Shown: positions 52,278 to 54,140 of the stretch, piece after piece
How the letters are laid out: each line of letters begins with the position of its first letter
Numbering within the stretch: the stretch's first letter is position 1
Source: Curvularia clavata
Lineage: Eukaryota
DNA: 64,000 nucleotides
Assembly: GCA_023920165.1 (NCBI GenBank)
Contig: CP089279.1
Location: 2,542,001 to 2,606,000 of the forward strand
Direction: 5' to 3'
Notes under the pieces: generated by a model
Databases searched by the model: none
What the model saw: only the letters and a program-made list of their open reading frames with translations
Told to the model about the DNA's origin: nothing
Translations under genes and position numbers: made by a program

Positions 52278-53631
52278 TTACTGGTGGGATTTCATGTCGT
52301 CAGCCCTTGGGGAATGGCTTTCGCGCTTGGTTTCGTTGTCACCGGCGGCTTTTCCGCAGCCTTTGACTAGGATGTGCCTCTGTTTTGATGCGTTAGCATA
52401 CTGTTGATGTAAACCATATTTCCTTGTCAAAACGTACCTTGAGGGCATCTTTCCTTGAGAAGCTCTTGTCGCAGTGGCTGCAAGGGAAGGGCTTGACAGC
52501 GAGATGTATCCTCTTGTGTCGCTTCAGATCGTGATTACGGTTGAAACTCTGAGGGCACTGGTCGCACTTGAACGGTCGGTCGTTGGCAGTCGGTGCTTGG
52601 TGCTGGGGGTGACCCATGAAGTGTGGCATAGCCGCGGCGTGTCCACTGTTGAAACCAGACATCATGGCAGGGTGTCCGCCAACCAACGCGAGGCCTCCGG
52701 CTGGATTTTGGACGTTGGAAAAGACAGGCGCTTGGCCTCCGCCATACTGTAGAGGGGGCCTTTGCTGGTACTGATATGGCGAATGGACTGGGTTGTTTGA
52801 TGGTATCGATGGAATCGGGCCCTGCGACACAGCTGGCGACATTCGCTGCATCGATCCACCGGCGCTGATTGGGCTCTGCTGCTGGCTCAACGTTGGCGAG
52901 GGTCCAGTCGAGTATGGGAAGTTGGAGTGCTGAGGTGTTCCCGAGTTGTGATAGCTGTAAGTGGGGGTTGGAGGCTGAGGCGGCCTGAACGAGTCGTGGC
53001 TGAGAGCAGGCGATTGCTGTGGTCCCGAAGACGAGACAGGCGTTTGGGCACCCATCATTTGCTGGTGGTGATGCTGGGTGGATATCGAAGGCATGCTGGA
53101 ACCGTTGGACGATGGCGTAAAAGGAGGGAGTTGCTGGGTCATCTCATATGGTGGCGGATTCAGCCCTTTGCCAAGTGAATCCTGTCGTCCGAGCTGGCCC
53201 TCGCCACGCGAAGGAGCGAACATGCCTCCTCGCGCTTGACCGTATTGGTTCTGCTGGTGTGTGGCAGGGTAGCCATATTGCGTGGCAGGTGCTTGCGCCG
53301 GGGGAGAGTAGATGTATTGTCCGTTGGAGTAGGACATTGCTGTAGAATACTGTGGTCCGGCTGTCGAAACTCCTGATGAGCTTATCACATCGCTGTGATT
53401 AGTGTTTGGAGGAGTCAAAAGGTTGCCAACGCTGGCAATAGTCACCGGAGCCTGTGACGACTGTGAAGCGGTAACCGTATTGCTGTAAGGATATTTGTGC
53501 ATCGGTGGCGGTGGCAGCTCAAAACTGCCGAGTTGCTGGGCGTGAGGTCTCCGTGCTGCAAAGCTGGGAGGTGCACCCATTGGGTCAGACCCAGGATGCA
53601 TGGAAGACGGATGAGCCACAGCAGCAGCCAC
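52278..53631 (-). CDS. C2H2 zinc-finger transcription factor (two C-terminal fingers), one intron; start at GTG 53631 or ATG 53601
   Basis: RPFKCDQCPQSFNRNHDLKRHKRIHLAVKPFPCSHCDKSFSRKDALK|RHILVKGC; long P/Q/S-rich activation-like region. Confidence 0.93.
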
Positions 53632-54140
53632 GTTGGCGGTTGTGTTCCGGGTAGGTCTAGTTGACCTACCTACTTCAGATGAAGGAAAGATCCCAAGGAA
53701 CTGTAGCGAAGATGCTACAAATGGCAGAGTAGTGTGGTCGTAGTAGATACTAGACCAAGACGATGCCTGTGAAGACTGAAGGCCTGCAGAGGACGTAGTG
53801 GGAAGGGCAAAGAGCCGTTACTTAAAAAGGGACCTCGTAGAAAGATGCCCTCCAAATAACCCGTCGGCCTATGGAATAGCACTAGTGCGTCGACTCTCGG
53901 TTCTCGTCGTGTCAGATGGCCAACGGCTGCTCCGAAATGTCTTGATGATGCTGCGACCTGTTAGTGCTGCTCGTTGTCGCAGGTCAAAGAGGCAAGGGCG
54001 TACAGACGAGCAAAAACAGATATTCGTGAAACTGTGGTTGATGTCTACCACGAAGCGTTGGGTAGGGCCCGATTTCCTGGTCGCGCAGACGTAGTGCCAC
54101 TGAGGCTGTCGCACAGAAACTGTAGATGAGGGTTTTGAGT

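Follow-up and report, generated by a model that had tools for sequence, protein, structure and literature searches.

A GUG codon on the minus strand of the window (the whole 64-kb stretch of DNA analysed here), with its first base at 53631, is very likely a conserved initiation codon of a C2H2 zinc-finger gene, as judged by comparison of related sequences. Counted from this GTG the product is 431 amino acids long, and the encoded fingers match PF00096 with 37.5 bits (cut-off 25.2) and PF13465 with 40.9 bits (cut-off 40). A genome search found the gene as a single copy; its best protein match stands at 93%, and the cluster includes proteins of Bipolaris, Exserohilum and Curvularia. The first-pass annotation had proposed the GUG start together with a nearby hairpin. 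Comparison upheld the codon, through its context, a conserved Val/Leu/Met position and an orthologous locus, and gave no support to a role for the hairpin. That locus, L001 (47% identity), is the single orthologous stretch of DNA we obtained, one of three loci from a scan of prokaryote genomes; a scan of viral genomes gave 10 loci, none of them orthologous. L001 is a fungal gene of the spliced type whose contig belongs to the record of a bacterial metagenome-assembled genome; that record is probably contaminated. The gene and its transcript are laid out as follows.

52278..52379, minus strand: last coding exon, including the stop codon
52380..52437, minus strand: intron interrupting the second finger, removed in 3 of 4 runs
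52453..52572, minus strand: zinc-finger region (C2H2; PF00096, PF13465)
53506..53553, minus strand: family motif RRPHAQQLGSFELPPP, which any full-length start must precede
53818..53820, minus strand: in-frame TAA closing the frame, present in the window sequence and in transcript contigs
53951..54007, minus strand: 5' leader intron, with its donor at 54007 in 3 of 4 runs and at 54003 in 1 of 4
54141..54158, minus strand: sole leader AUG, opening a 5-codon uORF (MSHCR) in poor context

Transcript evidence was taken from assembled contigs of 4 of the 24 listed runs, from four studies; three of the four are marked as RNA by guess only, yet their contigs skip both introns. Spliced contigs cover GTG 53631. 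In three runs they extend to 54829, 54637 and 54549, which gives a leader of at least 0.9 kb, a lower bound given that contig ends do not fix the mRNA's 5' end. The 1.17-kb spliced leader contains one AUG, against a mean of 12.2 in 500 shuffles, and in place of two conserved good-context AUG uORFs of the cpc-1/GCN4 type it holds the single poor-context 5-codon uORF. Upstream ATGs in L001 sit at other places than this leader AUG. In runs X1 and X2 the exon runs unbroken from 53950 to 52438 and includes the TAA at 53820; since this stop lies in the same exon, no upstream AUG feeds the frame in the transcripts seen. It is therefore very improbable that an AUG in an upstream exon supplies the front part of the protein through splicing, which would make a non-AUG start unnecessary. 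A leader intron does exist, and upstream exons lead into the extension in some NCBI models, but these exons conflict even within A. fumigatus, and several Aspergillus models are marked 'partial' and have no Met. L001 argues the same way: 14 codons above its upstream CTG the frame is closed by a stop, and no ATG lies in frame.

Splicing of the leader intron starts from either of two donors, 4 nt apart: three of the four runs have GTCTGT, the one further from consensus, and the fourth has GTACGC. The choice between 54003 and 54007 shifts the frame of near-cognate uORFs in the upstream exon. Further upstream, GCCGTACATA is identical between the non-coding DNA of the window and that of the distant orthologue L001, in a region of shared motifs at 54611-54620 and 54481-54506 on the minus strand; CCT-AGCTTAAC and GATCGCC, of the same set, recur in the L001 upstream region. 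Two RNA contigs have their 5' ends close to these motifs, which may belong to the promoter or to the leader. Beyond them, 54830-58400 is GC-rich (57-62%), is covered in part by low-depth short contigs only, and has as its longest open reading frame 57219-58370 on the plus strand, with no Pfam match; it looks like a large regulatory region. On the other side of the gene lies a multi-exon protein kinase gene (46731-50183, minus strand; PF00069) with a long low-complexity C-terminal part, presumably resembling the Gin4/Hsl1-type kinases.

The start region contains the following features, together with the site used for comparison.

53578..53580, minus strand: second in-frame ATG, with C at -3 and G at +4
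53599..53601, minus strand: first in-frame ATG, with T at -3 and C at +4; the start in database models of close relatives
53602..53631, minus strand: 10-codon extension (V/M)AAAVAHPSS, conserved across Dothideomycetes
53629..53631, minus strand: GTG, the proposed near-cognate start, on grounds of context and conservation
53632..53640, minus strand: start context ACCGCCAAC, with A at -3; an 18-nt run identical to L001 begins inside it
43838..43849, plus strand: comparison site ACCGCCAAC-ATG of the RPL24 gene (L24e), matching in context

On the minus strand, 53640 to 53623 is ACCGCCAAC-GTG-GCT-GCT, and the GTG lies in frame with ATG 53601, 10 codons before it, just as the first-pass annotation had it. 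Its match to a ribosomal protein gene holds as well: over both strands of the window ACCGCCAAC occurs twice, before GTG 53631 and directly before ATG 43847 of the L24e gene. The context of the first ATG, TCTTCC-ATG-C, is poor, again as claimed, and the first three in-frame AUGs in the window each have a pyrimidine at -3. Above ATG 53601 the frame stays open for 73 codons, none of them ATG; seven in-frame near-cognate codons lie in this stretch, and GTG 53631 alone combines A at -3 with G at +4. A whole-genome count of CGCCAAC-NTG-GC returned 53 sites (ATG 23, CTG 16, TTG 8, GTG 6). Inspection of 20 of the 29 ATG and GTG sites gave a mixture of plausible starts, internal methionines and non-coding matches: all five other GTG copies were without sign of a gene start, and at least 3 of the 15 ATG versions inspected (of 23) are internal methionines of long frames. 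We dropped the count as proof of a start context for this reason. Context alone is weak evidence for a start; conservation is what exceeds chance.

Models of close relatives at NCBI begin at MHPG or MGAP, and it is prokaryote-style gene calls on fungal contigs, which extend upstream, that expose the region. We collected 561 orthologue-like proteins, of which 181 have at least 30 residues before the RR motif and 112 were left after a 90% filter; the set thus consists of gene calls reaching upstream (181 of 561), and its members are related. The residue at the start site is Leu in 52, Val in 43, Met in 11 and another in 6, with no Ile, so that 106 of 112 have Val, Leu or Met, and Ile occurs in 17 of 106 in the column five residues further on. 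Immediately before the site stand Asn (83), Thr (12), Lys (3) or Ile (2), chemically unlike residues whose common feature is a codon beginning with A. Read from the amino acid, A is therefore at -3 in 100 of 106, against a share of A-first codons of 4-36% at offsets -12 to -2, and by the same reading the codon after the site begins with G in 105 of 106. Codons were seen as DNA in the window and L001; elsewhere they were deduced from amino acids and gene-caller starts, and the identity of the Leu codons is never visible. Gene calls begin with V or L in 39 cases, in 6 of them with V at the site itself; we assume from gene-caller practice that a V start stands for GTG and an L start for TTG.

A quick tree was built from 112 rows, namely the Val/Leu/Met rows minus L001, P0129 and P0133 plus nine Met-start models, the 6 rows with other residues being left out. 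On it the site changes state between Val, Leu and Met 16 times. Met is involved in eight changes, at least four of them forced by well-supported branches, and 12 named NCBI models (Penicillium, Talaromyces, Lignoscripta) begin with Met at the site. Orthologues that generally carry ATG here, or that show no conservation, are not what we found: Met occurs only in separate lineages, as repeated swaps, and the alignment suggested by the annotation has the Dothideomycete orthologues keeping Val, with GTG where the codon is visible. Met in other lineages might be taken to mean that the GTG arose from an ATG by strain mutation or by an error in sequencing, a reading to which we give almost no credence, as GTG 53631 and its context have no alternative letter in 4 of 4 runs from four studies, the 12 other Pleosporales-type rows that lie nearest on the tree all have Val, and L001 has GTG too.

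Conservation at the site extends to the bases. L001 keeps the GTG within 18 identical bases, with five consecutive identical codons around it; after the ATG, where silent sites are saturated, 20 of 80 fourfold sites match between L001 and the window. A downstream Met before the RR motif is absent in 10 of the 95 Val/Leu homologues (some of these ten calls begin with an upstream M whose codon is not visible), and in 8 of the 10 the next Met comes 120-161 residues on. The base-level conservation, taken with the loss of the downstream Met in these homologues, points to selection on the site. Where Val is present the downstream Met is kept in 42 of 43, preceded by Ser (29), His (6) or Gln (3) in 38 of the 42, with the codon before it TCC in the window and TCG in L001, which fits a poor context kept at the downstream AUG.

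It could be argued that the GUG is a real but negligible leak, with nearly all protein made from AUG 53601 or 53580 and no regulatory weight at the codon. The database models of close relatives and the downstream Met of the Val homologues would agree with this, as would the in vivo reporter of Neurospora crassa cpc-1, in which near-cognate starts gave less than 1% of AUG activity; the GUG form could on this account be minor. The same report has 71% of wild-type activity remaining in vitro when the cpc-1 AUG is removed (PMC5487733). We consider a negligible leak improbable, because the bases are conserved in distant Dothideomycetes, 10 homologues have lost the downstream Met and the AUGs that would have to carry the load all have a pyrimidine at -3.

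The first-pass annotation missed that in relatives the frame is conserved for about 50 codons further upstream, as P-x-L/V-D…W…LPTPP. The corresponding features in the window are these.

53632..53817, minus strand: AUG-free open frame above the GTG, an eroded homologue of the family's upstream extension, with the Trp codon 53757-53755 kept
53794..53796, minus strand: ACG in the same frame, A at -3, coinciding with the upstream near-cognate site of the family or at most 3 codons from it

Coding conservation in the family starts near P-x-L/V-D, a second candidate site about 50 codons above the GTG. Of the homologues, 88 extend 40 residues or more above the GUG site; the Trp is present in 81 of them and an LPTPP-like motif in 53. 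The [L/V] column of P-x-[L/V]-[D/A/E] has L in 49, M in 17 and V in 12 of 88, with two rows that look misaligned and most M being gene-caller starts, and is followed by D in 57, A in 15 and E in 5 of 78. Gene calls begin at this column with V in 16 cases and three codons earlier with L in 5; L001 has CTG there. Some 50 conserved codons without an AUG call for a second, upstream near-cognate start, which likely exists in the family, with less certainty than the GUG site. The residue before it is mostly S, L or F (27, 19 and 7 of about 60), which implies a pyrimidine at -3 and a poor context. From these alignments the family would have two near-cognate starts, of which the GUG is the second; in the longest form it is also an internal valine. 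Six non-Dothideomycete homologues (P0141, P0191, P0202, P0204, P0228, P0280) have weak conservation of D-Y/H-F and F-x-L-P-x-I/L 30-40 residues above LPSLD, and a third, still longer form may exist in some homologues of this kind.

The window's own upstream region is open and eroded: identity to the nearest relative is 55% there and 96% in the main frame, while pairs drawn from the four nearest relatives share 74-91%. The Trp remains, and V-D and LPTPP are lost. It is doubtful that ACG 53796 is still in use as a start in this species. At base 53783 all three runs covering it read another letter, which changes Gly to Asp and brings back the Asp that the family has after the upstream site; a strain variant or an error may account for the base in the window.

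Because conservation continues for about 50 codons above the GTG, T-A-N-V-A could partly be held as protein. Carried to its end, this would make the GTG just an internal Val within a long isoform whose start lies upstream, with T-A-N-V-A-A conserved as protein and the start-like context a coincidence. The Trp and the LPTPP-like motif of the extension give it substance, and relatives must translate through the codon. We nevertheless think it improbable as a full account of the site. Ile is missing from all 112 homologues at the position while present five residues later, the residues before the site have only a first base in common, and silent positions in the comparison with L001 are fixed around the GTG only. 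Met also arises at the site repeatedly and serves there as the annotated start, and in this species the upstream part has decayed with the site intact.

The hairpin described in the first-pass annotation is present:

53650..53670, minus strand: 8-bp hairpin GGTAGGTC-N5-GACCTACC, upstream of the GTG

Read from 53670 to 53650, it ends 18 nt before the GTG. A 51-nt stretch containing it folds at -15.9 kcal/mol, equalled by 3 of 200 shuffles. Hairpins near a near-cognate codon are known to assist non-AUG initiation, and in the cases treated in the material we used (Kozak 1990, PTEN-beta; PMC5666671) the enhancer starts 14-18 nt downstream of the codon, whereas here the hairpin lies upstream. No stable conserved hairpin was found 14-18 nt downstream of the GTG, where folding is no better than in shuffles (z -0.60 and -0.35). 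L001 lacks the hairpin and has folding z-scores of 0.08 upstream and -1.69 downstream, and perfect 8-bp stems are a common kind, with 13 in the 64 kb. On these grounds, among them its place on the wrong side of the codon, we rejected the hairpin as an initiation enhancer. The residues encoded over it (G-R-S-x-G-P-T) recur in Pleosporales, where the hairpin itself may be kept.

The closest parallel is cpc-1 of N. crassa, together with its homologues in Pezizomycotina (Ivanov et al. 2017, PMC5487733). There too a transcription-factor mRNA has a long leader and an in-frame AUG-free extension with several near-cognate codons, conservation is best for the codon closest to the main AUG, which has A at -3 and G at +4, and in Agaricomycete homologues the identity of the codon varies by lineage as it does here. 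Three of five features that we listed for the cpc-1 type are found in the C2H2 gene: the AUG-free frame in the mature mRNA, a conserved near-cognate position and a conserved optimal context. The two genes differ in that cpc-1 encodes a bZIP protein, has a pair of conserved strong AUG uORFs that is absent here, and carries an extension of about 180 codons, compared with about 10 and about 61 in the C2H2 family. At the putative start site here AUG has come back repeatedly, and some lineages have lost the downstream AUG, unlike in cpc-1 as far as that source covers it. In fungal aminoacyl-tRNA synthetases (Wallace et al. 2020, PMC7049704) leaky scanning likewise yields different N-termini, and an AUG in one fungus may stand where another has a near-cognate codon, or the reverse. 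The first start is the leaky one there and supplies a peptide for mitochondrial targeting, a role not shown for the C2H2 gene; in the latter it is the near-cognate that is in optimal context and the AUG in a poor one.

A published name for the family was not found in the literature by names, locus tags or peptide strings, nor a report on the start of this C2H2 gene, and the ESM Atlas gives it automatic C2H2 names only. We considered ZfpA, which we take to be the name of a C2H2 factor of A. fumigatus. The orthologue in strain Af293, EAL85848.1 (419 amino acids), has Cys at 343, 346, 371, 374 and 393 and not at 377. ZfpA, likewise a fungal C2H2 transcription factor, has a cysteine at 377 according to its C377A variant, in what we drew from PMC10434176, and the parts consulted of PMC12014256 and PMC10174577 contain no sequence detail bearing on its identity. 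We therefore set ZfpA aside as probably another gene, with the caveat that numbering could differ between gene models.

The observed sequence, splicing, AUG depletion, conservation pattern and swaps between AUG and near-cognate codons would most likely be explained by leaky scanning along a weak-start ladder, which in the family runs from an upstream near-cognate in poor context through a near-cognate in optimal context to AUGs in poor context. Scanning ribosomes would read the spliced, AUG-depleted leader of about 1 kb; part of them would start at GUG 53631, with its A at -3 and G at +4, and make the 431-residue factor beginning MAAAVAHPSS, and the remainder would leak to the poor-context AUGs at 53601 and 53580. 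Elsewhere in the family the weaker near-cognate site about 51 codons above the GUG would give a long form with the Trp and the LPTPP motif, a form that would be decaying in this species and could survive only through ACG 53796. We presume from its consensus that the LPTPP of the long form resembles a Cdc4-type phosphodegron, and that the 10-residue difference changes the N-terminal residue, Ala as against Met-His. We infer that ribosomes initiate at the GUG, that a mix of isoforms results, and that a weak codon has been retained in a strong context as a limit on the factor's dose or a means of tuning it. The first-pass annotation also raised control by eIF1/eIF5 stringency, which is plausible, if somewhat less than likely. 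A broader view, which we offer as speculative, is that a single-copy factor in several classes of filamentous ascomycetes is dosed by the weak-start ladder, that stringency switches between unstable and stable forms, that lineages retune the dose by AUG/GUG/Leu swaps, and that some make the full-length protein from non-AUG starts only.

The mechanism of near-cognate initiation is already known from Neurospora cpc-1, and the C2H2 gene would be a further case of it, one with unusually clear evolutionary support. If our reading is right, between 10 and about 60 residues are missing from the N-termini of the family's database models, and natural forms would escape constructs tagged or overexpressed from the annotated AUG. 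The alternation of AUG, Val and Leu states in a fixed context, with at least 16 changes on the tree, amounts to a natural experiment, and some species have lost the back-up AUG, which makes the retention of weak start codons on regulators by fungi a testable matter.
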